Shown: one piece after another, positions 1 to 27,394 of the stretch
Layout: every line of letters starts with the position of its first letter
Position numbering within the stretch: position 1 is the first letter of the stretch
Source: a virus
DNA length: 64,000 nt
Strand: one strand, 5' to 3'
Virus genome (UHGV): UHGV-1421865
Notes under the pieces: generated by a model
What the model was told of the DNA's origin: nothing
The model's input: the letters and a program-made list of their open reading frames with translations, nothing else
Database searches by the model: none
Made by a program: the position numbers and the translations under genes

Positions 1-236
1 ACATCCCGTCCATATCAGTGACATTGCTAACGTCCCACTCGTCGATTTTGATGTTTCTAACACCAAGACCGTTGAACAAAAACGACATGTCTGTGATCTC
101 TGATGTATCAATGAAGTTTAGATCTATGTCTCGACCCTGACGTTTTAATTCTTGTTCTATAATAGATTTAAGTTCGGCTTTCGATTTGGGTCGAATACTG
201 AGTGATTTTGTAGTTGATGTAATATGTATACCCATA
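1..236 (-). CDS. DUF285/BspA-like leucine-rich-repeat protein, paralog 1. The gene's N-terminus is in the window (ATG at 236); its 3' end runs past coordinate 1.
   Basis: Reverse translation gives MGIHITSTTKSLSIRPKSKAELKSIIEQELKRQGRDIDLNFIDTSEITDMSFLF...WDVSNVTDM, the same leader and first DUF285 repeat as the three downstream paralogs. Nucleotides 20-56 are near-identical to 507-545. Confidence 0.6.
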
Positions 237-251
237 GTAGAACTACGCAAT

Positions 252-725
252 TTAGTTGAATTTCGGTTGTAAATGTGGTTTGGATTCCATTTTGGGGCAG
301 TCCCAAAACATTTCCATTTTTACTCTAACATTAGATACATCCCAAGAACTTAGATCGGAATTAAATTTATTACAACCAAGAAACATTGAGGACATGTTTT
401 CCACATTTGATACGTCCCAACCAGACAAGTCACAATTAACAGCGTAGTGGAACGCTGTGTGTTCCATAAAGTTCTTACAATATCTAAACATAGATTCCAT
501 ATTAGTGACATTGCTAACGTCCCACTCGTCGATTTTGATATTACGTACATAATATAGAGGATGAAACAACCATGACATGTCTGTGATCAATGATGTGTCG
601 ATGAAGTTCAAATCGGCATCCCAACCTTGACGTTCCAGTTCTTGTTCTATCAACGACTGTAACTCATCTTTCGTCGTGGGTCTGAATATCGCTGGTCTAG
701 TATTAGATGTTATCCGTATAGCCAT
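252..725 (-). CDS. DUF285/BspA-like repeat protein, paralog 2.
   Basis: Conserved leader MAIRITSNTRP..FRPTTKDELQSLIEQELERQGWDADLNFIDTSLITDMS, followed by repeated WDVSNVTNM..MF..C..FN.DLS.W units. Confidence 0.75.
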   Translation of the reverse strand: MAIRITSNTRPAIFRPTTKDELQSLIEQELERQGWDADLNFIDTSLITDMSWLFHPLYYVRNIKIDEWDVSNVTNMESMFRYCKNFMEHTAFHYAVNCDLSGWDVSNVENMSSMFLGCNKFNSDLSSWDVSNVRVKMEMFWDCPKMESKPHLQPKFN

Positions 726-741
726 AATAAAACCGCGTAAT

Positions 742-1446
742 TTAGTTGAATTTTGGTTGAAGGTGTGGATTATCTAGCATATTCGGGGAATCATAAAATA
801 CATCGACTCTACGCTTCACCTTTGCTACGTTCCATCCGGAAAGGTCACATTTTAGTTTAGGACATTCTGAAAACATGTAATTCATATTAGCAACTTTGGA
901 CACTCGTGGACCCCATTTATCTAAACCAGTACCCCTAAAAATAGAACATTTAGAGAACATTCTTTCCATAATAACAACTTTTGATACATTCCAACGAGAT
1001 AGATCACTGTCAAATTTGTAGCAATAATTAAACATAGCATCCATTTTAGTTACCTTTGATACATTCCAATTATCTAAACCACTACCCTCAAAAACATTAC
1101 AACCGTAAAACATGGTTCCCATATTAGTTACCTTTGAAGTATCCCAACAAGATAGATCAGCATTGAAATTTTCACAATTATAGAACATATAAGACATATT
1201 TGTCACATTCGAAGTGTCCCACTCATCAATCCGTATATTACCAATATGAAGGTTGAGAAATAACCAAGACATATCAGTGATCTCAGATGTGTCGATAAAG
1301 TTCAAATTGGCATCCGGACCCTGTTTCTTTAGTTCGTTGAAGATCAGCGCCTGTAGTTCGTCTTTCGATTCGGGTTTTGTTTTGTTCAAAGGCTTAGAAT
1401 TTGATGTAATCTTTAATCGTTCTGTGACGTGCGTTGAAAGTGACAT
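742..1446 (-). CDS. DUF285/BspA-like repeat protein, paralog 3.
   Basis: Five or six tandem WD(V/T)S(N/K)VT(N/K)M..MF..C..F units of about 25 aa; leader MSLSTHVTERLKITSNSKP. Confidence 0.8.
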   Translation of the reverse strand: MSLSTHVTERLKITSNSKPLNKTKPESKDELQALIFNELKKQGPDANLNFIDTSEITDMSWLFLNLHIGNIRIDEWDTSNVTNMSYMFYNCENFNADLSCWDTSKVTNMGTMFYGCNVFEGSGLDNWNVSKVTKMDAMFNYCYKFDSDLSRWNVSKVVIMERMFSKCSIFRGTGLDKWGPRVSKVANMNYMFSECPKLKCDLSGWNVAKVKRRVDVFYDSPNMLDNPHLQPKFN

Positions 1447-1484
1447 TTTAATCAGTTATATTTTTTGAAACAAATAACTCAACA

Positions 1485-2042
1485 CTATGCGTTGTTAAAC
1501 TTTGGTTGAAGTTGTGGATTATCGTACATCTGCCGACAGCCGACAAATATATCTTCATTATCTGATACCTTAGAAACGTCCCAACCAGAAAGGTCACATT
1601 TTAGTTTGCGACAAAACATAAACATTCCGTTCATATCAGTAGCGCGCTTTGTGTTCCAGCGAGACAGATTAGATTCAAAATTTTCACAAAAATAGAACAT
1701 CCTTCGCATGTTATTCACATTACGCACGTCCCAATTAGATAAGTCACAGTTGAATTCTTTACATCTAAGAAACATGCCGGCCATGTTCGTCACGTTAGAG
1801 ACGTCCCATTCATCGATTTTGATGTTTCTGATCTTACAATTTTCAAACAATGTGACCATGTCTTCAATTTCAGATACATCAATATGGTTCAAATCGGCAT
1901 CCGGTCCTTGTTTTCTCAGTTCTCCTCTTATTGCAAGTTGAAGATCAAATTTTGTTTCCGGTTTTATAGTTCGTACTGTTGAGGCTGATTTAGACTTAGA
2001 CGTAATCTTTAATCGTTCTGTGATGTGTGTTGAAAGTGACAT
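1485..2042 (-). CDS. DUF285/BspA-like repeat protein, paralog 4.
   Basis: Leader MSLSTHITERLKITSKSKSAS, then WDVSNVTNMAGMF / WDVRNVNNMRRMF repeats. Confidence 0.75.
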   Translation of the reverse strand: MSLSTHITERLKITSKSKSASTVRTIKPETKFDLQLAIRGELRKQGPDADLNHIDVSEIEDMVTLFENCKIRNIKIDEWDVSNVTNMAGMFLRCKEFNCDLSNWDVRNVNNMRRMFYFCENFESNLSRWNTKRATDMNGMFMFCRKLKCDLSGWDVSKVSDNEDIFVGCRQMYDNPQLQPKFNNA

Positions 2043-2115
2043 AACTGTTTGTAGTATAAGTAGTTAAAGAATCTACTAAGTCAAATAATAGCTTAGTAGA
2101 TTCTTTTTATAAGTA

Positions 2116-3624
2116 TTAGTCTTTATTAGGCGATACTACAAATCCAAAGCGGCTTATAATATCTCTATTGAGTAGCACCCGTGTAGACTTGTCTCTGTTG
2201 TCAACTAAGGCAAACTCTACATCCAATACTCTACGCGTTCCTATTTGGATAGACGGTATCTTAACAGTGATTCGTTTTTCTCGGTTTCTACTAATCTCAC
2301 CAGATTTCTCGAATGTATAATCTTCACCGTCGATTGTAACGACCACTTCAGTACCGTTCACTTTTAATTTATCATAACAAATTGTCGATATATCGTCACT
2401 ACCTGTACTTAGTTGTGCGTTTGTTGATAATACATTAGTATCCTCCAGAGTAGTAACATCTATATCACATAAGTACGGTACAGTTTTGGTTGTATATGCC
2501 AGTCCGCTTGCATCATTGATACTATCCAGCAATAACTTAAAGAAATTAAGCCCCATCGCTTCAGAAATACCTTCGGTACCAGGACTCATATTGTATTCTA
2601 ACACAACATTATCACCGATTTCCTTATTAGAACCTTTTACTAAGGGCATAATATCGACAGCGCACCAAGGCATACCGGATATTTTAGCGACTTTCTTAGC
2701 AATTTCCTCTTGTTCTTTTGTTAATACAACATGTTCTACTTTCGCTCCCAACGATACATTACTTCTGAAGTCACCTTTACCCAACATCACGCGTTTCATT
2801 GCACCGAGAATAATTTGACGACCGTGCAATGTAATTACATGTACTCTGATGTCACCACCGTCACCTTCTTCTTTTTTCTGAATAAGCAACTCTATTTCTG
2901 GATCCACATCGAATACCGCTTGTAATACCGGTAGGATATTCGTACCGTTCAACATAAATACACCGACACCACCATGACCACTTAATGTTTTTACAACATA
3001 TTCGAATTTTTCATCTTGCTTTTCATCTTCACCGACATTAGGATAAATCTCTACAAGTTTTTCATACAACGATTTCTTACCCTCCCTTATATCATCAGCT
3101 GTTAATAAAGCAAAACGAGGTTGAGGGATATTATACTTATCTAATAAAACACTAGAACTGTATTTATTTGACGCGATACGACCTTTGTCGATAGGGTTAA
3201 TAACATAAAAACCACGGTCTTGTAGTAGTTCTATTATATTAGCGCATTCTTCGTTAAATAACGTACTTAAACGTGCTATTACAATAGTATCGGTATTAGA
3301 CTTATCTGTTACAGTAAATTTATTATTCTCATCAAAAATAATGATATTACCATTACTAAGCTGTTTATACCTCACACTATTTGTCTTGAACATCTGTAAA
3401 ACAGTAGAGGTATTCTTTATAGCATCACACAAATTAGCTAGTGTTTTATCTTCTAAACAATCTGTTGACGCACCAAACAATAAAATGTTCTTAAAGAAAT
3501 AGTTGTCTTTAGATTTACCAAACGAGGTAACTTCATTCTCATCTTTAGCCTCGTGAATCTGCCTATCCTTTAAGTAACGTTTTTGAACTACATCTTGCAA
3601 TGATAAAATATAATTTGAGTTCAT
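2116..3624 (-). CDS. RimK-type ATP-grasp ligase (alpha-L-glutamate ligase-like) fused to a C-terminal DUF785 retropepsin-like domain.
   Basis: ATP-grasp motifs VVKTLSGHGGVGVF, IQKKEEGDGGDIRV and GDFRSNVSLGA (compare RimK DFRSN.H.GG). The C-terminal ~140 aa resemble the RimK-associated protease domain, with STGS at the position of the catalytic DTGA. Confidence 0.7.
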   Translation of the reverse strand: MNSNYILSLQDVVQKRYLKDRQIHEAKDENEVTSFGKSKDNYFFKNILLFGASTDCLEDKTLANLCDAIKNTSTVLQMFKTNSVRYKQLSNGNIIIFDENNKFTVTDKSNTDTIVIARLSTLFNEECANIIELLQDRGFYVINPIDKGRIASNKYSSSVLLDKYNIPQPRFALLTADDIREGKKSLYEKLVEIYPNVGEDEKQDEKFEYVVKTLSGHGGVGVFMLNGTNILPVLQAVFDVDPEIELLIQKKEEGDGGDIRVHVITLHGRQIILGAMKRVMLGKGDFRSNVSLGAKVEHVVLTKEQEEIAKKVAKISGMPWCAVDIMPLVKGSNKEIGDNVVLEYNMSPGTEGISEAMGLNFFKLLLDSINDASGLAYTTKTVPYLCDIDVTTLEDTNVLSTNAQLSTGSDDISTICYDKLKVNGTEVVVTIDGEDYTFEKSGEISRNREKRITVKIPSIQIGTRRVLDVEFALVDNRDKSTRVLLNRDIISRFGFVVSPNKD

Positions 3625-3694
3625 TATTGTTTTAATATATTTCTGATATACTTAAAAATCCTTATTATTAAGGATTTTACAAGACTACACCAGA

Positions 3695-3976
3695 CTATCG
3701 ACGATCTTTCACCGACACTACAATCTTACGATTAGCAATCTTCTCGAGTGCATCAGCTCTGTCTTGTAGTTGACTGTCTTTGTTATTAAGTGTCAAATTG
3801 AGTGTTTTAACACTGTCTTGATAACGAGAGAGTACTTGTTGTACACTATCGAGTTCTGTACGTGTACTATCGAGTTCGTTCGAGTAGTTACAAGACGATA
3901 CACAACGGTTGAGGCTAAAAAGTCCCAAGATACCGACTACAATAGCAAACTTATTTCTTTTAAGGAATTCTTTCAT
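3695..3976 (-). CDS. Small membrane-anchored coiled-coil protein; possible i-spanin-like lysis accessory protein.
   Basis: N-terminal K/R then hydrophobic stretch FAIVVGILGLFSL, followed by a predicted coiled coil (LDSVQQVLSRYQDSVKTLNLTL..). Function inferred from architecture only. Confidence 0.35.
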   Translation of the reverse strand: MKEFLKRNKFAIVVGILGLFSLNRCVSSCNYSNELDSTRTELDSVQQVLSRYQDSVKTLNLTLNNKDSQLQDRADALEKIANRKIVVSVKDRR

Positions 3977-4059
3977 TTTTTTTCTTTTATATCATTTAGT
4001 TGAAATATATACGTTGGTTTACTAGCGTTAAGTCGTCTTGCGCCGACTGACTGGAGGCG

Positions 4060-4362
4060 TTAAACTGACCAACCAATCTTAGCACCGACGGCCGTCAAGA
4101 TAATTCGGGATGTCAGTAGACTACCGAAAGTACCTTTTACGTCGACACCCAGCGCATCACAGACGGCTTTCATCACAGCGGGACCGAACGTCATACCGGC
4201 TGCACCGCCCAAGATAGAACTGAACAGGCCTTCTTCTAAAGGTACGCCTTGTTCTTTTGCCTCTTGTAGACGTTTGATAGTGTCGTCGTAAACAGCCGAT
4301 TCGTTGAGCTGTCGTTCGCGCTCGTCTTTAATATGTTTTACTGTTTCGGAATAGTTATTCAT
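4060..4362 (-). CDS. Small protein with an N-terminal coiled coil and a C-terminal glycine-zipper membrane segment.
   Basis: GGAAGMTFGPAVMKAVCDALG...LLTSRIILTAVGAKIGW. The ATG at 4362 lies directly after the stop of the upstream gene; the track start at 4371 is a TTG. Confidence 0.4.
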   Translation of the reverse strand: MNNYSETVKHIKDERERQLNESAVYDDTIKRLQEAKEQGVPLEEGLFSSILGGAAGMTFGPAVMKAVCDALGVDVKGTFGSLLTSRIILTAVGAKIGWSV

Positions 4363-4363
4363 A

Positions 4364-6034
4364 TTATACAAAATTTATTGTTACAGCATCCATTGTAATG
4401 CTGTCGTATTTATGTTCTCTGTTGTTTTTGTTATAATAGTATCGTATAGAACCGGTGATAAGGGGAATTCTAAGATCGGAATCCAGTTCGATGTTACCGG
4501 ACATATCGAGTCCTACTTGTTTTGACGGCTCGTAGGCTCTTTTATACGGTACATATTTTTCTGTCCCGTTAACAAATTCTTTCTTATATAAAGTATAATA
4601 TCCGTCTCTGTACGCCTTTTCGTTATCGTCGCTGATGATGTCTACCACTATCGACTCCACACCGTTTATACCGGAAAGTTCTTTTATAATATCGCTCTTG
4701 ACAATCTTTCGCGTATTGGTAAGCCGTTTCGACAGGTACTGTGCTAGACTTGTCTTTACCGACTGTTCTATTGTTTTTTTATAGTTATTGTTTTTAGCCT
4801 TTATATAGAACACCAACGCATATTTGCTTATAATAGGCTCTATGATGTTTATAGTAGTACCTGCAAAGGACCTGTTTGAGTTTTTTAAGGTGGTTTTAAT
4901 CTGTTCTTGTTCGCTATTAGATAATAGTATATCTTTATGAGACAAATCAAAATAATTGGTTCTTTTTTTGTACAATTCTTTGAGGTTTCTGGTTAGTATA
5001 CAGTTGACTACCATAGAGTTGTACTCACTCCATATCTTGGTGTACCCTATAAAGGAGAATCTCGACAAAAAGAGTTTGAAATTATCTGGTGTTGCCAGTA
5101 CGCTACTACGAGAGTTTTTACCCACCATATTACGAACAAAATTGATACTTTCTGCGTTACTACCGCCGGCGATAACGTTATTTACCGTTATATTAACATA
5201 CTCGTTCGGATTGACAGAATTACCGTACGCGTCGACAACATAGTCTCGGAACATCAGTCGTGCGTTTTGTAACGTGATATTTCCTAGTATTCCCGAATGT
5301 GTTAAATAACGAACCCCGACGGTCTGCCCTTCTCTTAACTGCGTACCATGGACGTTATTACCGAACTGAATCGTTATCTCGTTATTAAAACCGACGGTGA
5401 CGATGTAACTGTTACCAGACAGATCATAAAAGTTCTGTACCGGTGACCATAGTTCGTTGTCGACACGGACTTCGATATAGTCTTTGTCGAACAGTTCGGG
5501 TGTCGTTATATTAAATTGTTCTAACGGTTTTCCTTCCGACACAAAATTAGCATGGTTGAACTGCCCCTGTAATACCTTCAGTTCATGGTTGATGATAGGC
5601 TTCGATACGTCGATAACATAGTACTCTGAATTGATAACTGTATTATATAACAACCCAGTGTTCGGATCCTGTAACAAACAACCGTTCGGAATGTATATCT
5701 TAGACGATTTAGTACTCAATCCGTTATTGACTTCTACCTGCATCGTAACCGTCCCGACAGCGGCTGTACCGTAGCTCGGTTCGTAGCCGGATAACGTTGC
5801 TAAGTTATATATAGATTTCTTACGTCGCGCGGTGTATATATTCTGTTCCGACAACGCGTCTTCTATATAAAACATGATATTTTGCATCACACCTTTTATA
5901 CCGTCGAAAATGACAGTAAATACTTGACTGTGCCCGTACGGTATATTTAACGACGCAAACGTCTTCGACAAATAGGTCCGGACCGTCTCGTCGAACCGAT
6001 TAAAAGACGTTTCTATTGTTTTGAATAGTTTCAT
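4364..6034 (-). CDS. Hypothetical protein, 556 aa; possibly structural.
   Basis: Long uninterrupted ORF with an ATG start and codon usage matching its neighbours; no recognisable motif. Confidence 0.6.
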   Translation of the reverse strand: MKLFKTIETSFNRFDETVRTYLSKTFASLNIPYGHSQVFTVIFDGIKGVMQNIMFYIEDALSEQNIYTARRKKSIYNLATLSGYEPSYGTAAVGTVTMQVEVNNGLSTKSSKIYIPNGCLLQDPNTGLLYNTVINSEYYVIDVSKPIINHELKVLQGQFNHANFVSEGKPLEQFNITTPELFDKDYIEVRVDNELWSPVQNFYDLSGNSYIVTVGFNNEITIQFGNNVHGTQLREGQTVGVRYLTHSGILGNITLQNARLMFRDYVVDAYGNSVNPNEYVNITVNNVIAGGSNAESINFVRNMVGKNSRSSVLATPDNFKLFLSRFSFIGYTKIWSEYNSMVVNCILTRNLKELYKKRTNYFDLSHKDILLSNSEQEQIKTTLKNSNRSFAGTTINIIEPIISKYALVFYIKAKNNNYKKTIEQSVKTSLAQYLSKRLTNTRKIVKSDIIKELSGINGVESIVVDIISDDNEKAYRDGYYTLYKKEFVNGTEKYVPYKRAYEPSKQVGLDMSGNIELDSDLRIPLITGSIRYYYNKNNREHKYDSITMDAVTINFV

Positions 6035-6078
6035 TTATTGTATATTTTTGTGATGTTCGTTAACGTGATTATTTTTGG

Positions 6079-6180
6079 CTGTGACGCACGATTTTTCTTT
6101 GACCTTAGAGTACCAAGATCAACACATTTGAGTGCGTCAGAGAGCCTAAAAAGTGCCAAAGAATCGATTCTATGTTGCAC
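6079..6180. repeat. Conserved intergenic structured palindromic element, copy 1 (plus form).
   Basis: gtgacgcacgatttttctttgaccttagagtaccaagatcaacacatttgagtgcgtcagagagcctaaaaagtgcc. Outer inverted repeat gacgcac/gtgcgtc. Confidence 0.8.
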
Positions 6181-6226
6181 ATACTAGTACACATAACAAA
6201 TATAGACTGATACAGACTGTAAAAGA

Positions 6227-6571
6227 CTATCTAAACTGATACTGACGTTCACCTTCGGTATCTGTTTTTTCGTCGTAGATGTTTATTATAACGTGATATA
6301 TACTGCGATAGTCGCCGTCGAGTAGTTTGACTTCTACGCTATGCTTCATCTGTGACAGATAAAAAGTGTCTTTAATATGTTCTTTAATGTATTCTTCGAC
6401 GCGTGTCGTAGACGGATTCATGTCCCAGAGAAATTGATCGAAGTTGGTACCGAACTGCGGTTCTCCTATCAGCTCTGTATTTTCTGTATTAAATAACATA
6501 TCTAGTTCTTGTAGGGCAGCGTCTAATTCCGACGTCAAGAACACTCTACTGTCTATGGCTAAATCCAACAT
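6227..6571 (-). CDS. Hypothetical protein, 114 aa.
   Basis: ORF with ATG start, packed tightly against the 6580..8487 gene. Confidence 0.5.
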   Translation of the reverse strand: MLDLAIDSRVFLTSELDAALQELDMLFNTENTELIGEPQFGTNFDQFLWDMNPSTTRVEEYIKEHIKDTFYLSQMKHSVEVKLLDGDYRSIYHVIINIYDEKTDTEGERQYQFR

Positions 6572-6579
6572 TGTTTTTA

Positions 6580-8487
6580 TTATATAGATTGATTGATAGA
6601 ATACGTACCGGATGAAAGATATGTATCGTCGTCTACTATGATGTCGAAGACACCCGAAATGTCGACTATATCGCTTGCCTTTATCTTAAATATAACAAAC
6701 GATTCGTTTCGTCCGATTTCTTTGTACTCTTTACCTCCGATACTGATACAAAATAGGTCTACCTTTGTCATATAGTTACCTAAATTGATACCTATATTCT
6801 GTTCTATGCGGGGACGAAGATTGATATGCTGTAAGTTTTGTACTTTATAGAATATCGGCTTATAAAGTATCTGTTTGTCTAAATTGTTGTTTATAATAGA
6901 CTGTTTAGTACTACACTCGCTGTCTACATTAGGATCTACGATATGACAGTTTAATTTATCTATAAATTTGAATTTAGATGCGTCTTGTATTTCCATGTCG
7001 GATTGAATATGAATATGTTGTTTTTGTGACGTCACAATGTACTTGTACCATTCGTCTGTTATAATAACGTCGTTGGAATTTATCACAGTACCGGTATATC
7101 GGTCTACAAAAGCGACTCGGCATACAAGGAACGCCGGTTTTTGTTTCCACGACTTAAATATGTTATATAAAGGAAAACTAAATGACGACAGGCTACTTAA
7201 ATCACTATTTTCGTTACGTGAATAGACAATGTTTTTATATAGTCGATCGGTTGCTATTTCGATGCGATAACCCAGGAACAGTTCGTCTGTATGCAGCGAT
7301 GCTTCGTACTCTTCTCTTATAACACTCTTTCGCATCTCCTTATATAACTCTAATGTCTTGTTATCGTCTAAAATCCATTTATAGATAAGGTTGTTTCGTT
7401 TGATATGAACATAGTAGTCTATGAGTTGCTGTTTGTCTGTTTCTGTTATAGTAGTAATAGCGTCTACGTCGGCGTACATGTCGTCTACTATGCGTTCTTT
7501 AGAATATACTTCATATTCCGATTCTGTGACACAAAAATGGTACTTGTACGCTTCCAACAAACCGCCGTCGGTACGAGGGAATTTATCGTAAGAATGATTA
7601 AAGTTACTTATAATAGACACTTCTCCGTTTTCAAACCCTAATTTAGACGTTAGTTCGAATCGATTTGTATCGGCTAAAACACAAGTACCGACACCTACGG
7701 TATCGTCTGTTTCGTACCTGTTTTCGTCTACCGTTCTGTACGGTAATAGTGTTATTGTTATATTATAAGGCGATCTGTGTTTTCGTTTAAGATATTGCTT
7801 TGTGTATATCGTATTATCGTCGTACTGTTCCGACACTATTTTGTACGGGTATTCGAACAGATTCATGCTAATAAACTGTTTATTACCCAATATAGTAGAT
7901 ACTTTATTGACAAAACCGGATTGCTTATTGAACGAATTAAAACGAATAAGTGTAGTATCATAAATCCAACCGGACAGTAAATCGTCTAAATCCGGTATGT
8001 CGACATAACTGTATTCGGAATAAGATTTGTTATAAAGAGAATGCTGTGTTTTCAGTTCCGTCTCCGACGCCGTATTTAGTTGATTTACTTTATATAAACC
8101 AAGATGGATTTTGATACCGTTTATATAAGAGGTAATGTGTACAATTTTAGGTACGTCGACGTCTGTTATAGGGTGGTAGATCTTGATTCTTCGTGTTCGT
8201 ACTTTCTTTGTCAGCATCTTGTCCTCTTGCCGTGTGTAGATAGGAGACGATTCCAGTTCGTAGTTGACAAATTCGGTCTTATCTGTACTATATAAACGGT
8301 TATTGTTTTGTACCGGGTACAGTTCTTGCTCTATAGACGAAGCTACAATAAACAAATCGGTGTCGTTAAGTACTTTATTTTTATAGTCGACAGAGCGTAT
8401 AACATTAAACGTATCGTAACGCTCCGAGTCATCGACTTCTAATTTATACGAATACGACCCTAATTGAACGTTGTATATCTTGCCCAT
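6580..8487 (-). CDS. Hypothetical protein, 635 aa.
   Basis: Long ORF with ATG start. Confidence 0.6.
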   Translation of the reverse strand: MGKIYNVQLGSYSYKLEVDDSERYDTFNVIRSVDYKNKVLNDTDLFIVASSIEQELYPVQNNNRLYSTDKTEFVNYELESSPIYTRQEDKMLTKKVRTRRIKIYHPITDVDVPKIVHITSYINGIKIHLGLYKVNQLNTASETELKTQHSLYNKSYSEYSYVDIPDLDDLLSGWIYDTTLIRFNSFNKQSGFVNKVSTILGNKQFISMNLFEYPYKIVSEQYDDNTIYTKQYLKRKHRSPYNITITLLPYRTVDENRYETDDTVGVGTCVLADTNRFELTSKLGFENGEVSIISNFNHSYDKFPRTDGGLLEAYKYHFCVTESEYEVYSKERIVDDMYADVDAITTITETDKQQLIDYYVHIKRNNLIYKWILDDNKTLELYKEMRKSVIREEYEASLHTDELFLGYRIEIATDRLYKNIVYSRNENSDLSSLSSFSFPLYNIFKSWKQKPAFLVCRVAFVDRYTGTVINSNDVIITDEWYKYIVTSQKQHIHIQSDMEIQDASKFKFIDKLNCHIVDPNVDSECSTKQSIINNNLDKQILYKPIFYKVQNLQHINLRPRIEQNIGINLGNYMTKVDLFCISIGGKEYKEIGRNESFVIFKIKASDIVDISGVFDIIVDDDTYLSSGTYSINQSI

Positions 8488-8599
8488 GTGCAGTTATTGT
8501 CTCTTTATATATGAAAATCCCATGTCTCTACATTGATTTTTGTCTTCAAATGTACTATATTTTAACTACGAACAAGAAAATAAACAACAGCATACTACA

Positions 8600-8866
8600 A
8601 TGGAACAAACAAAAACATATCAAACAGCTATTCTGACAGCCCTTAAACGTCTACAAGAACAGTGCGTAGACACAAATCCTGAACTTTATTCTATTGTAGA
8701 AGAATTTGAACGGTTGTACGATGTGGAAAACAGCACTTTCGGTAGCCTCTATCTACTGAATTTGGATCTCTATACGACACTCGTTATAACAGAAGATGTA
8801 GAGCTCCAACCCTACATTAGCATTCTTATCGATATTATTGAGAATTTCCCTACATTTTTCTCTTAA
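8600..8866 (+). CDS. Hypothetical small protein.
   Basis: ATG at 8600 (MEQTKTYQTAILTALKRLQEQ..). The track start at 8540 is a TTG. Confidence 0.35.
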   Translation: MEQTKTYQTAILTALKRLQEQCVDTNPELYSIVEEFERLYDVENSTFGSLYLLNLDLYTTLVITEDVELQPYISILIDIIENFPTFFS

Positions 8867-8931
8867 GAAAAGATGCTAATCTGGGGTCGTACGGGATTTT
8901 TACGTATAACAGATACGAACAAGAACAATAT

Positions 8932-9636
8932 ATGAACAAAAGATACAAATTTCAGGTCGGCGATATTATCGCTTTTAAGTTCATGGGGCTTAGATTTAAG
9001 TTCCGTGTAGTGCCGCAATTCGAGTATTTCTTGCCAAGAATGTGCGATTATTGGGATATTTCGGATTCCACACCGATTACTTTTACCGGTTTGAAGTTGG
9101 AGTATGTGTCTAAACGTCGGGGTGAATTACCCCGTGATGTAATCGGTATGTACTATCCCGAGCTTACCGACTTAGGTTCAACCTGTTATTGTATTTTGAA
9201 CAACAGTGAAGATTTCGACTTTTGGACGGCGTTGATGCGATTTACCCACCACGGTATCATTAAAAACCTTACTATTTATACATTAGGCGATCGTCCTGTT
9301 CGTTATAACAACAACCGAGTGTGTAAAGTAGTGAACACAAAAGCACCTTTTAGAAATAGTGTCGGCACTATTAAGTCTAAATCAGTGCCTGTATCGAAAG
9401 AGTGGCATCTAAATAATGCTACTAATATAGATGATGTACTTGCTGCTATTAAAGGTACTCTTATCAAATCCGCCGGTTTTGGAGGGGACGATTATAGTAC
9501 GCAGTTTAGTTCTGCTACAACTACACAAGACATAGTAGACAGTCCATACAAGTTGACAACAGACATATATACAGAAGTACTTGAAAACTTATTAGTACAG
9601 TTGTATAGTATACTTTCAAAAGCACCTCCTGTATAA
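8932..9636 (+). CDS. Hypothetical protein, 234 aa.
   Basis: ORF with ATG start. Confidence 0.5.
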   Translation: MNKRYKFQVGDIIAFKFMGLRFKFRVVPQFEYFLPRMCDYWDISDSTPITFTGLKLEYVSKRRGELPRDVIGMYYPELTDLGSTCYCILNNSEDFDFWTALMRFTHHGIIKNLTIYTLGDRPVRYNNNRVCKVVNTKAPFRNSVGTIKSKSVPVSKEWHLNNATNIDDVLAAIKGTLIKSAGFGGDDYSTQFSSATTTQDIVDSPYKLTTDIYTEVLENLLVQLYSILSKAPPV

Positions 9637-9639
9637 CGT

Positions 9640-11110
9640 GATAGCGTCATTAAACATTGAATATCAAGGAGATAATAAGTAGATACAAAATGACCAAACA
9701 GTTGTATAGTTTAAGAAGAAAATAAAGAAAGATGTATTTAACTGAAAAGCATATTATCAAACGAACGCACCCATTCTACAATGAGTGTGATAAGTTATGT
9801 TTTCAGTCAAAAAACATCTACAATCAAGGACTGTACAATGTAAGACAACACTACTTTAATACAAAGAAATATCTAAATTATTATGGAAATTATCACTTAA
9901 CCAAAACTCAGGAATGTTATGATTACCTTCCAACGAGAGTATTTTGTCAAACGTTAAAGCATGTTGATATGGTTTTCAAATCATTTTTCGCATTGCTTAA
10001 AAACAAAACTGTAAAGAATAGCCTACCAAAATACCTTGACAAGGTGAATGGTCGCTATGTAGCAACATTTATAAAGCAAGCAATAGGTTTAGGACAGTTT
10101 AAGAAAACGGGTAAACTACACTTATCACAAACAGATGTATACATATCAACAAAACTAACAGATTTTAGTTCTTTGAAAGAAGTTCGTATTGTTCCAAGGA
10201 TACATCATTATGTTATTGAAGTCGTTTATCAAGTGAAAGAAAAGACGCATTGTGATAATGGAAAGTATGCTGCCATTGACCTTGGATTAAACAATTTGGC
10301 AACAGTAGCATTTAATGATGGCTCAAAACCACTCATTGTTAATGGTAGACCCATTAAATCCATCAACCAATACTACAACAAAAAGAAGGCTCAATACCAA
10401 TCAAGGCTTAAAGGAAACAAACGAAGAAGCCAAACTATATGTACATTAACTAATAAGCGTAATAACAAGGTGACTGATTACTTGCATAAGGCAAGCCGAT
10501 TGTTGGTGAATCAATTAGTTTCGCAAGGAATAACCACATTGGTTATTGGTAAAAACAAAAATATGAAACAAGACATCAACATTGGCAAAGTGAATAATCA
10601 GAATTTTGTTCAGCTTCCCATAATGCGTTTTGCTGATTTAATGAAATACAAGTGTGAACTTGAAGGCATTAAAGTTTTGTTCAATGAGGAAAGTTACACA
10701 TCGAAGTGTTCCTTTTTAGACGGTGAACCCATTTGTAAACATGACAAATATATGGGTAAGCGTGTAAAAAGAGGTTTGTTCGTTTCACAGAACGGTATTA
10801 AGATTAACGCTGATGTTAATGCTGCATATAATATACTGATAAAAGCAATCCCAAATGCTTTTGCAGACGGGATAGAGGGTGTTGTAGTTCACCCATTGGT
10901 ATTAACCATAAAGAAATAATATATTATTTCATACTATTTCACGCTTATATCAGTCGAACTACAAACCTTCGACACAGCATTTGATATGCTGAGCAAAAAA
11001 GATACAATAAAAACCTACAAAGTGAATGTCGCGAAAGACGACAACACCTTTATCGATGATTTCCATGACACTATACTAGATCTTGTCAAACCCTAACCAA
11101 CCTACACATC
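9640..11110 (+). mobile_element. Probable solo IS200/IS605-type (IS1341-like) element carrying tnpB; ends not defined.
   Basis: tnpB is flanked by about 95 bp upstream and about 260 bp downstream of non-coding DNA, which could hold the LE/RE and an omega-RNA. A small hairpin cagcatttgatatgctg lies at about 10973-10989. Boundaries are inferred only. Confidence 0.4.
9732..10919 (+). CDS. tnpB: IS200/IS605-family TnpB (OrfB) RNA-guided nuclease-like transposon protein.
   Basis: 395 aa. The C-terminus has a Zn-finger-like region (C..C..C spacing in KCSFLDGEPICKHDKYMGKRV) followed by ADVNAAYNILIKA, the hallmark TnpB RuvC-III motif. N-terminal region typical of OrfB. No tnpA nearby. Confidence 0.8.
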   Translation: MYLTEKHIIKRTHPFYNECDKLCFQSKNIYNQGLYNVRQHYFNTKKYLNYYGNYHLTKTQECYDYLPTRVFCQTLKHVDMVFKSFFALLKNKTVKNSLPKYLDKVNGRYVATFIKQAIGLGQFKKTGKLHLSQTDVYISTKLTDFSSLKEVRIVPRIHHYVIEVVYQVKEKTHCDNGKYAAIDLGLNNLATVAFNDGSKPLIVNGRPIKSINQYYNKKKAQYQSRLKGNKRRSQTICTLTNKRNNKVTDYLHKASRLLVNQLVSQGITTLVIGKNKNMKQDINIGKVNNQNFVQLPIMRFADLMKYKCELEGIKVLFNEESYTSKCSFLDGEPICKHDKYMGKRVKRGLFVSQNGIKINADVNAAYNILIKAIPNAFADGIEGVVVHPLVLTIKK

Positions 11111-11182
11111 GCTTAGTAACGTACGTTGTTCTTTGAAGATCGTTAAAATAGATTATTATAAGAATAATATACGTAACAATAA

Positions 11183-11989
11183 ATGGATTTTGGGGTAGCA
11201 CTAAAGATATTAGATAAATACGGGCTGGAAGGTATAGCCTTATGTATAATTGCAGCGTTGATTTTTTACGGTGGGAAATGGGTACATACCAAGATAAGCG
11301 GTTCAATAACGACAACTATTCAACGACAGAACGATACCCTATCAAATAGCATAAAGGACTTATCTGTATCTTTAGCTACTGCGATGGTAGACAGAGAACA
11401 GTTTTTGATAAATGCCGTTGCCGAACAGAACAAGCACATGGTAGAATATCTCGTTAAACGAGACAATATCAAAAAAGACACACACGATACATTACTCGAA
11501 GAACGGCTGAAGAATACAGAGAACATCGAGCACAGACTGAACGACTTACTGAACTATTATCACTGTGATAGAATTCTACTGTACGAATTCCATAACTCGC
11601 TACAGAATTTATCGGGTATTCCGTTTGCGCGATTCTCTTGTAATTACGGTCGGCCGGCACCGGGTATTGTTTCGGTAAAACATAAATTACAGAATATCCC
11701 TTTCAGTACAATTAACACAGTAGTTCAGGACATAATGGAATCACCGGATTCGACAACATCGAATGTATGGTATAATGTGTCAGACTTAGCTATCAAGAAT
11801 CCGGATCTTGCACAGCTATTAACGTCTAACGGTGTGAAGTCGGTATTATTCAAGGGTCTGTACGGTAAGAACAATAATATGATCGGTCTTATCTCGATGG
11901 AATACATCAAACATCCTCAAGATATAAATATATCGTACACTAAACTATTGATTGAGGCATCTAAGATTGAGTCAATGCTCACCGCTTGA
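11183..11989 (+). CDS. Type-II membrane protein, 268 aa; possible T4 t-type holin given its architecture and position just upstream of the endolysin.
   Basis: Single N-terminal TM segment (GIALCIIAALIFYGG) and a large C-terminal domain. Its stop overlaps the endolysin start region. Confidence 0.45.
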   Translation: MDFGVALKILDKYGLEGIALCIIAALIFYGGKWVHTKISGSITTTIQRQNDTLSNSIKDLSVSLATAMVDREQFLINAVAEQNKHMVEYLVKRDNIKKDTHDTLLEERLKNTENIEHRLNDLLNYYHCDRILLYEFHNSLQNLSGIPFARFSCNYGRPAPGIVSVKHKLQNIPFSTINTVVQDIMESPDSTTSNVWYNVSDLAIKNPDLAQLLTSNGVKSVLFKGLYGKNNNMIGLISMEYIKHPQDINISYTKLLIEASKIESMLTA

Positions 11990-12033
11990 CAGTCCAATAC
12001 AGACTATCACAGTACAACGCAGACAACATAAGT

Positions 12034-12861
12034 ATGATCAACACAGCCTCAACAAGTCTCAACAAGCCCCCCCAAGACCAACATAAACCAGTACAGCCAG
12101 ATCAAGTATTAGAAGGTCTCGACGATTCAGAACGTCTTGTGTACCAACTACGGTCAGTACAGATGGATTTATTGAAGTCATGTATAGAGGGTTTCTCGTC
12201 TGAACAAATGGATGACGGTCATGCAGGTATCGACTACATCAACTATGCCGCTACTATGCCGATGGGCAGCGCTGAATTAGGTATCGATTCGTTATCAGAA
12301 TTTACTAACTATAACGGTTCTATACCTACTAACAAAGTCGCCGCAGCACTTAAAGTACCTAAACAATATAGTAACCGACTAGCGGCGTCGATAGCGATGC
12401 TCGACAAGTATGCACCTCAACTTGGCCTGAATAGTACAGGTAAGGTGTTATTGTTAGCACAGTTCGCTCACGAAAGCGGTAATTTCCAATTCTTTAAGGA
12501 AATAGGTGGCGCTGGTCGAAGCTACGGTCAACCGAAAGGTCCTTATGGTAAGCGATACTACGGACGAGGTCCGATACAAGTAACCCACGATTATAATTAT
12601 AAGGATATATACGAAAAGGCATTCCCGCAAATGGGACTGTCACAGTACAATATCTATGCTAATCCGGACCTGTGTGAAACAAACGACGTTATCGCTATTG
12701 CAGCAACCTTAGGATTTCTAATGTTGAACAAACGAGTCATAGAAGCCGCTAATTCTGGTGACATTAGAAAGACTACACGATATATCAACGGCGGACAAAA
12801 CGGTCTCGACGATCGTATAAAAAAGACTGGGCAGATCATATCGGCGCTGTCGACGACTTGA
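12034..12861 (+). CDS. Glycoside hydrolase family 19 (chitinase-like) endolysin.
   Basis: LLAQFAHESGNFQFFKEIG...YYGRGPIQVTHDYNYKD...INGGQNGLDDR matches the GH19 catalytic core (HESG..E.., GRG.IQ.T, INGG.NG). ATG at 12034; an alternative TTG at 11986 overlaps the upstream stop. Confidence 0.8.
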   Translation: MINTASTSLNKPPQDQHKPVQPDQVLEGLDDSERLVYQLRSVQMDLLKSCIEGFSSEQMDDGHAGIDYINYAATMPMGSAELGIDSLSEFTNYNGSIPTNKVAAALKVPKQYSNRLAASIAMLDKYAPQLGLNSTGKVLLLAQFAHESGNFQFFKEIGGAGRSYGQPKGPYGKRYYGRGPIQVTHDYNYKDIYEKAFPQMGLSQYNIYANPDLCETNDVIAIAATLGFLMLNKRVIEAANSGDIRKTTRYINGGQNGLDDRIKKTGQIISALSTT

Positions 12862-12986
12862 GTGACTGGGTGACGATTCGGAAGTTCAGTCAAATCAAAA
12901 GTAGTCTACTAGTAGTTTAGTAACGTCAATAGTAGTGTACCGATGATTCGGAAGTTCAGCCAAATAAGCAACAATAATAATATAAG

Positions 12987-13550
12987 ATGTTTGATAATAT
13001 AGATGCTTTATTAAAGGATGTAGGTAGTGTCGAGGTAGAAGAACAGTCTATGTCGATGCCCTTAGATTTAGACGAGGTGAATTCTGAATCGGAGCGTCAG
13101 GCGTACAATATAACACAGCGACTTGCTAATTATTTCTTCGACGAGCGCTATATTAAAGAGCATCCGTATATCCCTACTAAGATTTCTCAAGAGGTCGATA
13201 CCTTACGTCGTCTTATTAAGATGTTGAGAATCAACGAGAAAGCACAGGACACCGTCATTCAGGCAATATCGTTAGACGCCACTAAAGGTGCGTTGTACAG
13301 TGCGTTGACGTCGTTACAGAACAGTATGTTGTCGATGCAAACACAGCTGAATAATATCGTTAAAGAATTGGAGACCATCTTCAAAGAGATGCAAGACTAT
13401 ACAGAGAAAACCTTCGCTGAAAAAGAGAAAGAGCAAACAGATAACGGCGATATTATCGTTAGAGGTTCCAGAGACTTTATTAAGGACATCGAACGACAAT
13501 TATCTGGCACTACTAGTGAAGATATTGTATATACTAATAAAGACAGTTAA
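12987..13550 (+). CDS. Hypothetical coiled-coil protein.
   Basis: ORF with ATG start, followed by a terminator hairpin. Confidence 0.55.
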   Translation: MFDNIDALLKDVGSVEVEEQSMSMPLDLDEVNSESERQAYNITQRLANYFFDERYIKEHPYIPTKISQEVDTLRRLIKMLRINEKAQDTVIQAISLDATKGALYSALTSLQNSMLSMQTQLNNIVKELETIFKEMQDYTEKTFAEKEKEQTDNGDIIVRGSRDFIKDIERQLSGTTSEDIVYTNKDS

Positions 13551-13660: not shown

Positions 13661-16600
13661 ATGAAAGCAACATTTACTGACCACCTTCCAAGTGGTAAAA
13701 CAGTAGAGTACACCTCAGTGCCGTTGCCTGTATGGAACACACAAGGTAATCCTATTGCGAGTGCTCAATATGTTGTCGACGGTACGAGGATAACACGGAC
13801 CGGACTACACAGCGACGAAGGTAAGCTCCAAGATTTTATTGTTAATTTGATGAATGTTCATTTCTGTGGCATGGTCTTGGATGTACCGAGCGAATGTCCT
13901 ATTAAAAAGTTATACACATCGTCTGACCTGAAGTTTTTACTTGACTGGTATGCTGCCCAGCTTGCTAAGAATAGCGATGAGATAAATGCACTATTTATTA
14001 GAGTACAAGAGCTCGAAAGAAAGAGTTTTAGTTCCAGTGACGGGTACTATTATATCACACCCAAGGACACATCGATGATCTCGTTTGTTACCGGTACTAA
14101 TCTTGTATTATCGACTATAAAAAACAAATTCGATGTTGGTGGCTCTGGAGATGATCTTGTATTCACGTCGAAAAATCCCGAACTGTTCACCGTCGAAAAC
14201 GGTAATTTGGTCAAGAAAGGTACTGGTATCGGTGTACTGGAAGCCGCCTCGAAAAAGAATAGTTCGTTAAAGACAACTGTAAAAGTACTCAGCATCCGCC
14301 CTGAAGATATAGACATCGAAGGCGTTGATGGACTTCAAAATGGCCAGATACATGGTACAACAGCACCAGTGGACTTTAATTTGGATACAAATACCGGTGG
14401 TGATTTTACACAGTCTGTACTGACTATTGCGACAGCAAAAGATCACAAGAATGACGTAGATGAGATTAAAAAGAGTCTTACTGTAACAGAAACGTACAAT
14501 GTCGATAATTCAAATGGCACATACAGATTGAATGATCAAGGCAAACTAGAAAAGACAGGAAATGAAGGTAGTGGTAGTGTAACTAAGACAGTAACAGTTA
14601 AGTACGGACAAGAGGTAGTTAGAACAGCCGAAGTGTATACTAATGTAACTGTAGAAAGAACACATCGTACACTTGAGTTGAAGAAACCTGTATTGTTTAT
14701 TGAACAATCAAGTTTAGAATATAACGTACAGGACGTTCTTGATGTAAAGAATAACGGTAGGTCAGAGTCCCTGTCTGGCTACGTAGTAAAATCCGGTTCG
14801 CCTTTCCGAATTGAAGGTAACAAGCTTAAATATACCGGTACTTTCGGTGATACTGCAACATTAACATTAGTTAAGGACGGTACAGAAGTAAGTACTACTA
14901 TAAAGACTTATAAGTTGCCTACATTTAGTACTATAGACGACAACGTTACAATGGGTGATCATGTGATTAAAAAGATCACAGTTCCGAACCCGACTGGTCC
15001 TATAATGTCGTTATTTGGTATTACTACTAACACAGAATTCGTTCAACCGAATGCTGACTTTACTATGAATGTTAATGGTAATACGGCGTCTATTGCATCT
15101 AGTAAAGCGAATACTGGTGTATTTAGAATTACACAAACTGTAAGATACAACGGTACTATCATTGCTCGAAAAGAATTCAATGTAACTGTAACTGTTACGT
15201 CTGGTGAACAGGAAGCACATCGTACTATTGTTATTAAGAAACCCATTATATTTGTAGAGAATAATGATCTAGAATATGATCTATCTGATGTAATTGATAT
15301 ACAGCGCAACGGTACATCTGAATCCTTGTCGGGCTATACTGTGAAACCCGGATCGCCGTTTGTTATCAACAATGGCAAGCTTAAATTTACTGGTTCTTTT
15401 GGTAGTAATTCAACGTTAACCTTGGTTAAGAACGGTACAGAAGTAAGTACTACTATAAAGACTTATAAGTTGCCTACATTTGATAAGGCAGAAGATAAAA
15501 AAAATATAGTTGGTAGTGTTACTAGATATGTTGCAGCACGCGTGCGAGGTGAATTGATTAATGATTATTTTAAGCCCGAAATGGATGACGAAGATGCTTA
15601 TCCTGTTACTATTGAATATACGTATACTAAAGTATCTGGCGACTTTAAGGCAAATCAGGGCGAATATGATATACAGCTTACGTCTGATGTACCTAGTACC
15701 GGCATAGTTAAATACACTCAACTTGTAAAAGTAAATGATAATACTATTGCAACAAATGAAGGAAGTTTTAACGTTACGTTTACTAGCAAAGAGGTGTATG
15801 AATTAAGTAGTCCTACAAGTGATGTTGTGTTATATAACAATGTTATAAAATCAGTAGGTATTCTTGGTATAACATCTACCAAAAATGGACAGCCTGTTAT
15901 GCCTACAATGAATGTAACTATCATGGATCATACCGATCCGACCGATTCTGAGGGTTCGACACCCACACCTACTCCAACACCTGTCCCGGGTACTACTCCT
16001 GAACCTGGTGTCGTTCGTTCACATTATGTAACTGTAAATTGTACAAAAAATGCAGAGAATACTTATGACCTAAGAATAACTGCGGCAGACGGTTTACGTC
16101 CAGGTGAAACAGCACGAGGATATGTTGAATTAACAAACGGCAACAAGAACTTGGCTATTCAATTTGAATTGAAAGAATTTGTAACGGGTCTACATGCTGT
16201 ACCGACAGAAGTTACAATGAACAAGGCACAGCGTAGTGCATATTTTGATGTGTTTGTAGACGGTGTTCCCAGTGAATACGGTTATTCATATTGCCATTCG
16301 GACTATGATATTACCTATAACGATCAAAATGGAAATTGGAACATTACAGGATCACCCGACGGTGAAATGGAAGAAAGGGGTTACCATCGTATAAGAGTAG
16401 AACAACGCAATGATGTACAGAATACTGGTATAGATGTTGTAGTTAGATCTAGACATGATTCGTCTAAGACAATTACTGTACCGGTTAGATACCTGGCAGG
16501 TCAATCCACTGGAGGTGCTACACCAACACCCACGATAGATCCAAATAGACCTGTAACTTCAACTAGTGCTGTTGAGAGAAAACATTTTAATGTAGGTAAT

Positions 16601-19640: not shown

Positions 19641-20174
19641 CTATTCTGAAAATTGAATACTATTCTTTGTCAAATATAATTTTACCGGATACCTATTGAT
19701 GTTGTTGGACACTGTCGCTCCGAAGACAGCTTCTAATGTCGCTTGAACATCTTCTGTGGTGTCAGAAACATCGAATCTATCGAAGTGAACGATGAATCGT
19801 AGATTCGACACCTTGAATGTATCCAATGTAAAGTCTTTAATACCTTTTACATCGTATCGCTCGTCGAAATTGATATTTATATGTGGCATCTGTTTGTTGA
19901 GATGTTCAAACTTGTCGTATTCGAAATAGGCATCAGTGATATTGTCCTTGTTGACACCGAAGAATTTGGGTGCCATTTTTACGCTCGTCGGCATCTGTTC
20001 CAGCAACCAACTGTCTAAATATGCCGCTACGTCTTGTTCTTGATACAGTGCCGGCGCCGATATAAAGACATCTTTGGGGTCTATCTCGTATGTTACGGTA
20101 ACATCGTTAAGACGAATAATGTCCTCTATACCTTCCGATAAATGCTCGGCAATGTATTTTTTAAGTTCTATCAT
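19641..20174 (-). CDS. Hypothetical protein, 177 aa.
   Basis: ORF with ATG start. Confidence 0.5.
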   Translation of the reverse strand: MIELKKYIAEHLSEGIEDIIRLNDVTVTYEIDPKDVFISAPALYQEQDVAAYLDSWLLEQMPTSVKMAPKFFGVNKDNITDAYFEYDKFEHLNKQMPHININFDERYDVKGIKDFTLDTFKVSNLRFIVHFDRFDVSDTTEDVQATLEAVFGATVSNNINRYPVKLYLTKNSIQFSE

Positions 20175-26990: not shown

Positions 26991-27059
26991 CTATGTTTGT
27001 ACATGTCTATACGAAAAATAGAAACTGCCAAAATCAGCTTAAAAGTAGACCAAAAAGAA

Positions 27060-27394
27060 TGAAAAAACTATCGAATTTCATTGCAGAACACTTAGACGAC
27101 AATCCAAATTCGGATGTATTGTATCGTCTGGATGTTTTTACTCGTGATAACAGTGACCTAAAAGATGACTTTATTCGTCTTAGTACTTATATAAAAGAGA
27201 ATCCGATGTCGACACGCGATGTGTTGTACACCTTCATGGAACAACATTGTCCTACACTATTCGCACAAGCGGTACAATTTTTGGTCTTTGTAGGATCTGA
27301 TACCGTGCCGGAGACGACAGATATAAAACAACTCGAAATCGATATTCCCTCGGCTGCACAGCGCCTGTGTAGAATGCTTGTACATAGCATATAA
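27060..27394 (+). CDS. Hypothetical small protein.
   Basis: ATG at 27060 (MKKLSNFIAEHL..) inside track ORF 26993..27394. Confidence 0.4.

Follow-up and report, generated by a model that had tools for sequence, protein, structure and literature searches.

In bacteriophage T4, residues 1 to 10 of the internal protein IPIII serve as a capsid-targeting sequence (CTS; PMC9026906, PMC5694885), which acts in targeting mainly through residues 4 and 7 and in processing through residues 8 and 10 (PMC9026906). In the T4 genome record, IPII and IPIII begin MKTYQEFIAE/A and IPI begins MKTFKEFTSTTTPVSTITE/A (...STITE/A), where we write a slash at the end of the peptide; Alt is cut at ITE-6 and gp21 carries LIE-9 (PMC5694885, PMC9026906). 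A comparable arrangement is known from phiKZ-like phages, whose ejection or inner-body proteins (SPN3US gp53/gp54) are diverged paralogs with an identical N-terminal propeptide that bears protease motifs; paralogs of this type are packaged in the head and ejected (PMC5694885). Here, we analyze five small genes of the DUF285 family in a 64,000-nucleotide stretch of the virus genome UHGV-1421865 (the window). Some of them encode proteins that start with a T4-like peptide, and we put at about one half the probability that these long-form proteins are prohead-targeted, protease-trimmed, and probably injected binders.

Four of the genes lie head to tail on the minus strand, separated by gaps of 16 to 38 nucleotides (nt): 1-235, the 78-codon 5' part of a gene that extends past the window edge and continues on contig L002; 252-725, encoding 157 amino acids (aa); 742-1446 (234 aa); and 1485-2042 (185 aa), the first of the array. 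(L numbers denote the metagenomic or uncultivated viral contigs or loci compared, including those from IMG/VR, and P numbers denote homologous proteins.) A dispersed fifth paralog occupies 24402-25142 on the plus strand (246 aa, seven repeats), and a helicase gene begins 10 nt after its end. An earlier reading of the bare sequence, which we call the original prediction, had proposed all five genes; they were located at the positions and on the strands that it gave, and a profile search bore out their assignment to DUF285. All five exceed the PF03382 gathering cutoff of 25 bits, with scores of 33 to 215 bits and E values from 4.5e-8 (gene 1-235) to 1.8e-64, and the four complete proteins all exceed the TIGR02167 cutoff of 30 bits (45 to 148 bits). 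The current NCBIfam name of TIGR02167 is "PARCEL repeat" (Röske et al. 2010, PMC2996958). The repeat units are ~25 aa long (consensus WDVSNVTxMxxMFxxCxxFNxDLSx), and their number varies, as predicted, from 3 to 7 per complete gene; they combine a conserved hydrophobic framework with variable hydrophilic positions and form a confident solenoid in the AlphaFold2 (AF2) model.

A T4-like peptide at the N-terminus

The shared N-terminus of the five genes had been described as a leader of ~45 aa that begins with M(A/S) and resembles the capsid-targeting leaders of T4. The sharing is real, with 33 invariant columns within the first 78 residues of an alignment of the five window copies, and the M(A/S) start holds for four genes but not for 1-235, which starts with MG. 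The shared region is, however, not one targeting signal. The PF03382 match begins at about residue 36 to 49, from DADLNxIDxS onward, which is the first repeat. In the AF2 model of the 185-aa protein (mean predicted local distance difference test score [pLDDT] of 91), residues 1 to 25 have low confidence, with a tentative helix at residues 3 to 15 followed by a linker with a pLDDT of <50. From residue 26, the model is confident throughout: residues 26 to 46 form a strand and a helix (residues 31 to 45, pLDDT ~98; 1908-1952, minus strand) that caps the solenoid. This K.EL..lI helix is also bacterial. The cap helix and the first repeat recur together in a Fibrobacter protein (P0058), a signal-peptide-bearing bacterial protein (P0115), and a eukaryote-like protein (P0112), and thus roughly the second half of the leader is simply where the domain begins. 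On this model, the leader is a flexible peptide of 9 to 10 aa, a short linker, and the domain's own N-cap helix and first repeat (residues ~26 to 66). The resemblance to T4 thus stands for the first 9 to 10 residues, ending in (I/V)-x-E, and for two of the five window copies; it does not extend to the rest of the leader.

The two long-form copies in the window are 1485-2042, in which codons 1 to 9 (2016-2042, minus strand) encode the CTS-like peptide of MSLSTHITE/RLKITS, a low-confidence helix in AF2 that ends in I-T-E, and 742-1446, with its counterpart MSLSTHVTE/RLKITS (1420-1446, minus strand). The other three lack the 9-aa extension and have short-form starts (MGIHITS in 1-235, MAIRITS in 252-725 and 24402-25142). 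On L001, a near-identical contig that carries a longer part of the array, 8 of 11 copies have the extension as MSLSxF(I/V)xE followed by RLKITS, although in two of these eight an insert moves the Glu further from the start. The untagged copies (MAIRITS, MGIHITS, MLKITS, MALKITS) start exactly where the extension ends, and AF2 does not pack the decapeptide against the repeat domain.

Across the phages compared, the tag retains the T4 length, a hydrophobic residue at position 4, an aromatic residue at 7, I or V at 8, and E at 10. In T4, replacing that Glu with Asp prevents processing and leaves targeting intact. Tags of 10 residues include MKKLNQFITE (L030/L059), MKHLNTYITE (L014), and MKRINNYIIE (L036); tags of 9 residues include MSLSNFITE (L001) and MNFYNLIYE, the latter on a small DUF285 protein of the Campylobacter T4-like phages CPt10 and IBB_35. 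The V found at the first motif position of (I/V)-T-E-9 is not among the cited T4 sites, which have L or I (PMC5694885, PMC9026906). Among the 120 best homologues, 77 have the cap near the N-terminus; in 60 of these 77, [FYHWL][IVL]xE ends at residue 9 to 12, and in 56 of the 60 its last position is 9 or 10. Five window proteins have [FYH][IV]xE with its Glu at residue 9 or 10, versus 0.18 expected from the overall frequency of the motif.

Three of these five proteins are not DUF285 proteins: an unrelated 177-aa open reading frame (ORF) at 19641-20174 (minus strand; MIELKKYIAE/HL), an unrelated 162-aa ORF at 44736-45224 (plus strand; MKLLIVYITE/ND), and an unrelated ORF at 54153-54836 (minus strand; MINNRHINE). 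A small unrelated ORF at 50493-51119 (plus strand) starts with MLKHITE, and a possible further tagged ORF at 27059-27394 (plus strand) would encode 111 aa from an internal Met, its putative start (MKKLSNFIAE/HL). None of these ORFs has a Pfam match, and all are candidates for further tagged cargo.

In two more distant relatives, L031 and L032, DUF285 and non-DUF285 genes with the same leader stand side by side. In L031, three DUF285 genes start with MKDLKQHIFEKLKIS, an unrelated 132-aa protein starts with the near-identical MKDLKQHIFEKLKVS, and a 110-aa gene that lies between those for the protease and the capsid protein starts with MKSFKNFITEKLKITS; in L032, MxxLxxYITEKLHLxK is found on two DUF285 and three unrelated proteins. 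Tagged non-DUF285 genes lie inside the arrays at 11444, 11839, 12168, and 19801 in L031 and at 10770, 11234, and 11923 in L032, and the starts of the non-DUF285 genes in these two relatives are MKDLKQHIFEKLKVS, MKSFKNFITEKLKITS, and MHSLRQYITEKLHLNK. In L001, L031, and L032, the major capsid protein starts with MF(I/L)xE and the protease with ...C(I/M)(I/V)(Y/F)E, the E being residue 10.

Another family of non-DUF285 paralogs was observed in a distant relative, L007 (IMG/VR 3300012662_000009; 2067-2837, 6261-7160, 11763-12479, and 12723-13286). Its members start with MKSIKEYIIE, MKNIKEYINE, or MKNLKNSILE, the first of which is nearer to the T4 CTS (MKTYQEFIAE) than are the window's own tags.

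The locus thus shares with T4 IPI, IPII, IPIII, and Alt a 9- to 10-aa N-terminal tag, on the long-form copies, of the same pattern (M-K-x-hydrophobic-x-x-aromatic-I-x-E), an (I/L/V)-x-E site (STITE in IPI, ITE-6 in Alt), the presence of the tag on otherwise unrelated proteins, a Peptidase_S77 gene in the genome, and variation of the loci between strains (PMC9026906; PMC12373910). Unlike in T4, where the cargo consists of a few unrelated small basic proteins, the putative cargo here is mostly one homologous repeat family in a tandem array of 11 to 15 genes, with many copies untagged; the proteins are not basic, the tag continues into a conserved (R/K)L(K/R)I(T/S)(S/K) that is absent from T4, and packaging, cleavage, and injection are predictions. 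The phiKZ-like propeptides also differ from the window tags, being >100 aa long and cut by an S80 protease at A/S/G-x-E, and their cargo does not consist of PARCEL repeats.

A small homologue with the same N-terminal layout has been found in virions. Gene 1-30 of Campylobacter phage vB_CcoM-IBB_35 (NC_027989.1 24670-25212; CPt10 gp076; CP21_043) encodes a DUF285 protein of 180 aa in a T4-like phage. It starts with MNFYNLIYE/KQKKNNKPKTKADLKELI, that is, a 9-aa peptide ending in I-Y-E, a short basic linker, and the KPKTKADLKELI cap helix. The protein is 34% identical to that of 1485-2042 over 147 aa (E 7e-23), in an alignment that spans the cap helix, and it was among 38 virion proteins identified by electrospray ionization tandem mass spectrometry (21,402 Da, 7.2% coverage; PMC3322345, Table S2). 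Unlike the window array, gene 1-30 stands as a single locus (each genome has two matching places at most), and the genes near it are for baseplate and PAAR proteins, whereas the protease gene is not adjacent. The CP21 paper contains no per-gene proteome data for the CP21 homologue. A further viral expansion of DUF285 genes is that of Aureococcus anophagefferens virus (AaV), which packages two of the products (PMC7507832); unlike the phage studied here, AaV is a giant eukaryote virus whose proteins are larger, which has no T4-type tag or protease, and whose host genome also carries the domain.

Two other origins of the N-terminus were rejected. A fragment of a shared upstream gene does not account for it, as each gene's own start directly follows the preceding stop. 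A Sec or lipoprotein signal would need a hydrophobic core; the N-termini of the window DUF285 proteins are polar (MSLSTHITERLKITS, MAIRITSNTRP), without a hydrophobic stretch, and contain no signal peptide, lipobox, or membrane anchor, so that the secretion role offered as an option in the original prediction is not upheld for a Sec-type signal.

The array in its genome and in other phages

The window encodes a portal, a large terminase, a gp6-like baseplate wedge, a helicase, and a DNA polymerase. A near-identity search of cultured phage genomes with window 1-6000 gave no match, indicating no close cultured relative. Among uncultivated contigs, L002 is 100% identical to window 1-11446 and ends inside the array, and the 187-kb L001 is 99.98% identical to window 496-11446 (10,951 nt). 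In L001, the array, which the window edge truncates, comprises 11 DUF285 genes interrupted by one unrelated 168-aa gene. The array is followed, after 73 nt, by a gene for a 637-aa protein with an N-terminal T4-type prohead protease domain (Peptidase_S77, PF03420; L001 17609-19522, E 3.3e-9, 37 bits versus a cutoff of 27), which is followed by a 211-aa gene and then by a Gp23-type major capsid gene. Because L001 shows Peptidase_S77 and Gp23 beside the array, we place the array in the head-gene neighborhood of a T4-like phage; together with the portal, large terminase, and gp6-like wedge, these genes agree with the phage type assumed in the original prediction. The same gene order, array, protease, and major capsid protein, is found in L011, L031, and L032, and in L014 12 paralogs lie ~3 kb from Gp23.

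The C-terminal tail of the L001 protease protein (~440 aa) is repeat-rich and scaffold-like, with five ~28-aa repeats (EYSxxLxxYLKExFAPTIGETIQxWVT) and 25 [LIV]xE sites versus 12.9 expected, a count inflated by the internal repeats. From its sequence, the 637-aa protein appears to be a fusion of protease and scaffold, which are separate proteins in T4 (gp21 and gp22).

In cultured phages, DUF285 is found mostly in giant proteins (PMC7765460), probably fibre-like, such as PAU gp103 (1857 aa), a protein of Aeromonas phage D3 (2676 aa), and Vibrio phage pir03 ORF200; PAU and D3, with their repeats in proteins of 1857 and 2676 aa, were rejected as models for an array of small genes. Such arrays had been called unusual, but they recur on ~10 uncultivated large-phage contigs, with 4 to 20 genes each: 8 in L020, 8 in L036, 12 in L014 (a 408-kb contig of 29% GC), and 15 in L030 and L059 together, which lie on one 410-kb contig. 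In the library that we searched, which is not the whole literature, no papers on these arrays or their leader were found.

The phage proteins share with the PARCEL/DUF285 "BspA family" of Mollicutes, Listeria, Bacteroidota, and protists the 25- to 26-aa repeat, scoring above curated cutoffs, and with the bacterial members the N-cap helix (K.EL..lI....G.d.dLn.iDvS.iTDMs.lF). Variable repeat number, intragenomic shuffling, and antisense ORFs that fit the described dyad symmetry are further traits in common with PARCEL (PMC2996958). Unlike the bacterial proteins, those of the phage have no signal peptide, lipobox, or membrane segment, are very small (150 to 260 aa), carry a phage-specific N-terminal tag, and lie in a head-gene neighborhood. 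They also have a conserved C-terminal tail, NP(Q/H)LQPKF in the window, that the original prediction did not mention. Isoelectric points of the array proteins range from 4.3 to 8.6 and net charges from -17 to +4, so that they do not form a set of small basic proteins. No window DUF285 protein matched the LRR_5 profile (PF13306), and a Foldseek search of the DUF285 protein model against the PDB gave no significant structural match. The 234-aa protein of 742-1446 is identical to P0092, a protein encoded on contigs from human oral metagenomes. The host is probably an oral Bacteroidota.

Antisense to the DUF285 genes are long ORFs at 18-140, 256-447, 1253-1468, and 1708-1941 (plus strand) in the window and at 13985-14569 (minus strand) in L001, where they reach 194 aa. 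These ORFs, probably not genes, agree with the dyad symmetry that has been reported in PARCEL coding DNA. Scans of the array for sigma-70 promoters gave promoter-like sites at the shuffle level, a scan for intrinsic terminators gave 4 terminator-like sites versus 1.8 ± 1.5 in shuffled sequence, barely above that level, and no T4 late-promoter box (TATAAATA) was found upstream of the array. An inverted repeat at 2066-2106, perfect over 15 nt and with an 11-nt loop, lies after a RimK-like gene and before the array, where it may act as a terminator or mark the border of a transcription unit.

The RimK-like gene (2116-3624, minus strand) encodes a 502-aa ATP-grasp protein (PF08443, E 9e-21) with a C-terminal extension of ~130 aa. 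Homologues with 42 to 45% identity are present in other large phages (L006 to L008); used as bait in IMG/VR, the protein retrieved only distant phages at that identity, with no adjoining DUF285 array. Elsewhere in the window, a 395-aa transposon protein of the TnpB/OrfB_IS605 type (Cas12f-like) is encoded inside the phage genome at 9732-10919 (plus strand), and genes for GtrB-like glycosyltransferases lie at 27413-29146 (plus strand) and 57618-58559 (minus strand). The 410-aa protein of 59583-60815 (minus strand) matches only the C-terminal half of a phage DNA polymerase profile (phrog_262, 489-838 of 856), which suggests that it is part of a split DNA polymerase gene; Sphingomonas phage PAU has two annotated DNA polymerase genes. 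Four very large plus-strand ORFs, at 13661-18220, 38443-41193, 41201-44722, and 45320-49822 (1519, 916, 1173, and 1500 aa), have no PHROG family match.

Recombination and selection among the paralogs

The near-identical stretches at 20-56 and 507-545, taken in the original prediction as a sign of gene conversion, proved real on correction to an exact repeat of 36 nt at 17-52 and 504-539, which encodes IKIDEWDVSNVT. Around the repeat, identity is 91% (9-62 versus 496-549), and the genes are 72% identical otherwise (234 nt aligned); a codon-column permutation test of the pair gave a P value of 0.0014, or ~0.014 when corrected for 10 pairs. A second haplotype is present on L001 and L003, which come from different samples and whose identity to the window stops at position 496. 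A 148-aa gene there opens with the first 238 nt of 252-725 and continues with the 3' part of 1-235. The two segments meet within the repeat, and 252-725 has no separate counterpart. This haplotype is a 487-bp deletion that arose by unequal crossing-over of neighboring paralogs at the 36-nt repeat and left an in-frame chimera. Recent recombination among the paralogs is therefore confirmed, whereas gene conversion itself is inferred from the 36-nt identity.

Nucleotide identity among the paralogs in the leader region is only 59 to 72%, so that the shared peptide is kept by selection and not by recent homogenization; judged by their sequences, the paralogs are old. A comparison of L001 with the related phage L011 revealed syntenic arrays with gains and losses (11 versus ~15 copies), in which orthologues have kept their order. 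Their ratio of nonsynonymous to synonymous substitution rates (dN/dS) is 0.18 to 0.30, at a dS of 0.33 to 0.92; the corresponding dN/dS values are 0.09 for the protease-scaffold gene and 0.05 for the capsid gene. The bodies are thus not hypervariable, contrary to the original prediction: the family is fast-evolving yet constrained by purifying selection, and it diversifies through copy gain and loss and through recombination between paralogs.

A proposed role as injected cargo and its alternatives

If the long-form proteins are cargo, the array would probably be made together with the head genes, because it lies on the same strand directly upstream of the protease-scaffold and capsid genes, with gaps mostly of 4 to 40 nt (they are larger on either side of the one non-DUF285 gene). 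The tag, M-(S/K)-x-L-x-x-(F/Y/H)-(I/V)-x-E, would dock the protein on the scaffolding core as the T4 CTS does, Peptidase_S77 would cut after Glu 9 or 10, and the mature protein, starting with RLKITS, would stay in the head with the DNA. Once injected with the DNA, it might bind host targets through the variable face of the solenoid, most plausibly defence proteins, as T4 Ip1-3 do. Each of the T-even Ip1-3 proteins blocks one GmrSD restriction enzyme. The short-form copies (MAIRITS, MLKITS), whose starts coincide exactly with the predicted mature N-terminus, would be untagged versions of these binders, and such copies, for example, 24402-25142 near the helicase gene, probably act only after synthesis in the cell.

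Several observations weigh against this proposal. The tag is missing from three of the five window copies and from 3 of the 11 L001 copies; in other phages, the 20 copies of L078 and L092 have no decapeptide, and the 10 copies of L066 have a different leader. The putative cut site falls within the predicted low-confidence helix, and the array proteins are neutral to acidic, unlike the internal proteins of T4, which have been described as basic. No depletion of [LIV]xE sites was seen in the repeat bodies (14 observed, 11.6 expected), in a test without power. The protease and capsid genes lie outside the window and are assigned to this genome via the near-identical contig L001. A prohead protease lies within 10 kb in 6 of 79 IMG/VR DUF285 loci, about the chance level, so that we claim adjacency of array and protease only for the window's own clade. 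Finally, the detection of the IBB_35 protein, at 7.2% coverage, is compatible with a place inside or outside the capsid.

Some of the same observations favor an account that we find possible, if on balance improbable, in which the proteins are made after infection, never enter virions, and act in the cytoplasm as host-takeover or anti-defence binders through the repeat solenoid, the N-terminus being a conserved amphipathic helix of the family that serves folding, partner binding, or expression. Copies that lack the decapeptide are frequent (3/5 in the window, 3/11 in L001), whole arrays (L078/L092) lack it, and the fifth copy sits in a replication-type neighborhood beside a helicase gene; the proteins are not basic and have no signal peptide, and a dN/dS of 0.18 to 0.30 suits any functional protein. 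An unpackaged protein would be harder to reconcile with a decapeptide that is portable onto unrelated bodies, whose length (exactly that of T4) and I-x-E site persist in very divergent lineages, and that AF2 leaves unpacked against the domain. The small homologue with the same N-terminal layout in purified virions also speaks for packaging, as does the position of the array in the window's clade, where the protease and capsid genes follow it immediately and share its strand.

The finding of the IBB_35 protein in virions would suit a surface location just as well, and the array may instead encode virion-surface decoration proteins or adhesins (Hoc-like in role, BspA-like in kind) that are anchored to the capsid or tail by their N-terminal 25 residues, the mixture of paralogs displaying varied binding faces towards oral mucosal or bacterial surfaces. 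We consider this unlikely, even though most PARCEL/DUF285 proteins of bacteria are lipoproteins or adhesins of the cell surface (PMC2996958; NCBIfam names), the DUF285 repeats of cultured phages lie in giant, probably fibre-like proteins, and the array adjoins head genes. Known decoration proteins need no N-terminal propeptide, no capsid- or tail-binding domain is recognizable in the array proteins, and similar arrays are found in non-oral phages of very different base composition (L014, 29% GC). Moreover, the I-x-E tag at residue 9 or 10 is also found on tiny unrelated proteins and therefore suits a cargo tag better than a capsid anchor. We regard as very improbable indeed that the copies are a silent reservoir of selfish or decaying PARCEL sequences kept only as recombination donors, an idea to which the dyad symmetry of PARCEL coding DNA and the "reservoir" ORFs suggested for Mollicutes (PMC2996958), the long antisense ORFs over the repeats, and the breaks of contigs L002 and L003 inside the array lend some color. 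Against it, every copy is an intact ORF whose N- and C-caps are conserved, the L001-L011 orthologues are ordered and evolve at a dN/dS of 0.18 to 0.30 (dS 0.33 to 0.92), and AF2 models the fold with confidence.

Host immunity encounters injected internal proteins before any other phage molecules, and outside the T-even coliphages almost nothing is known of them. If the tag of the long-form proteins works like the T4 CTS, a 10-residue motif could predict candidate injected proteins in thousands of uncultivated T4-like and jumbo phages; PARCEL/DUF285, a widespread repeat domain without an assigned function, would gain a concrete role as a diversifiable binding scaffold; and there would be a natural case of a phage cargo family diversified by paralog recombination. 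A broader scenario, which we offer as a speculation that is rather doubtful in its entirety, is that T4-like jumbo phages of the mouth and other habitats carry a recombining library of solenoid binders that are loaded by a CTS and injected before gene expression, with paralog shuffling, of which the chimera is a natural example, creating new specificities and untagged copies supplying the same binders later. Were it true, the library could be likened to a repertoire, in the style of variable lymphocyte receptors, of premade anti-defence or host-capture proteins.

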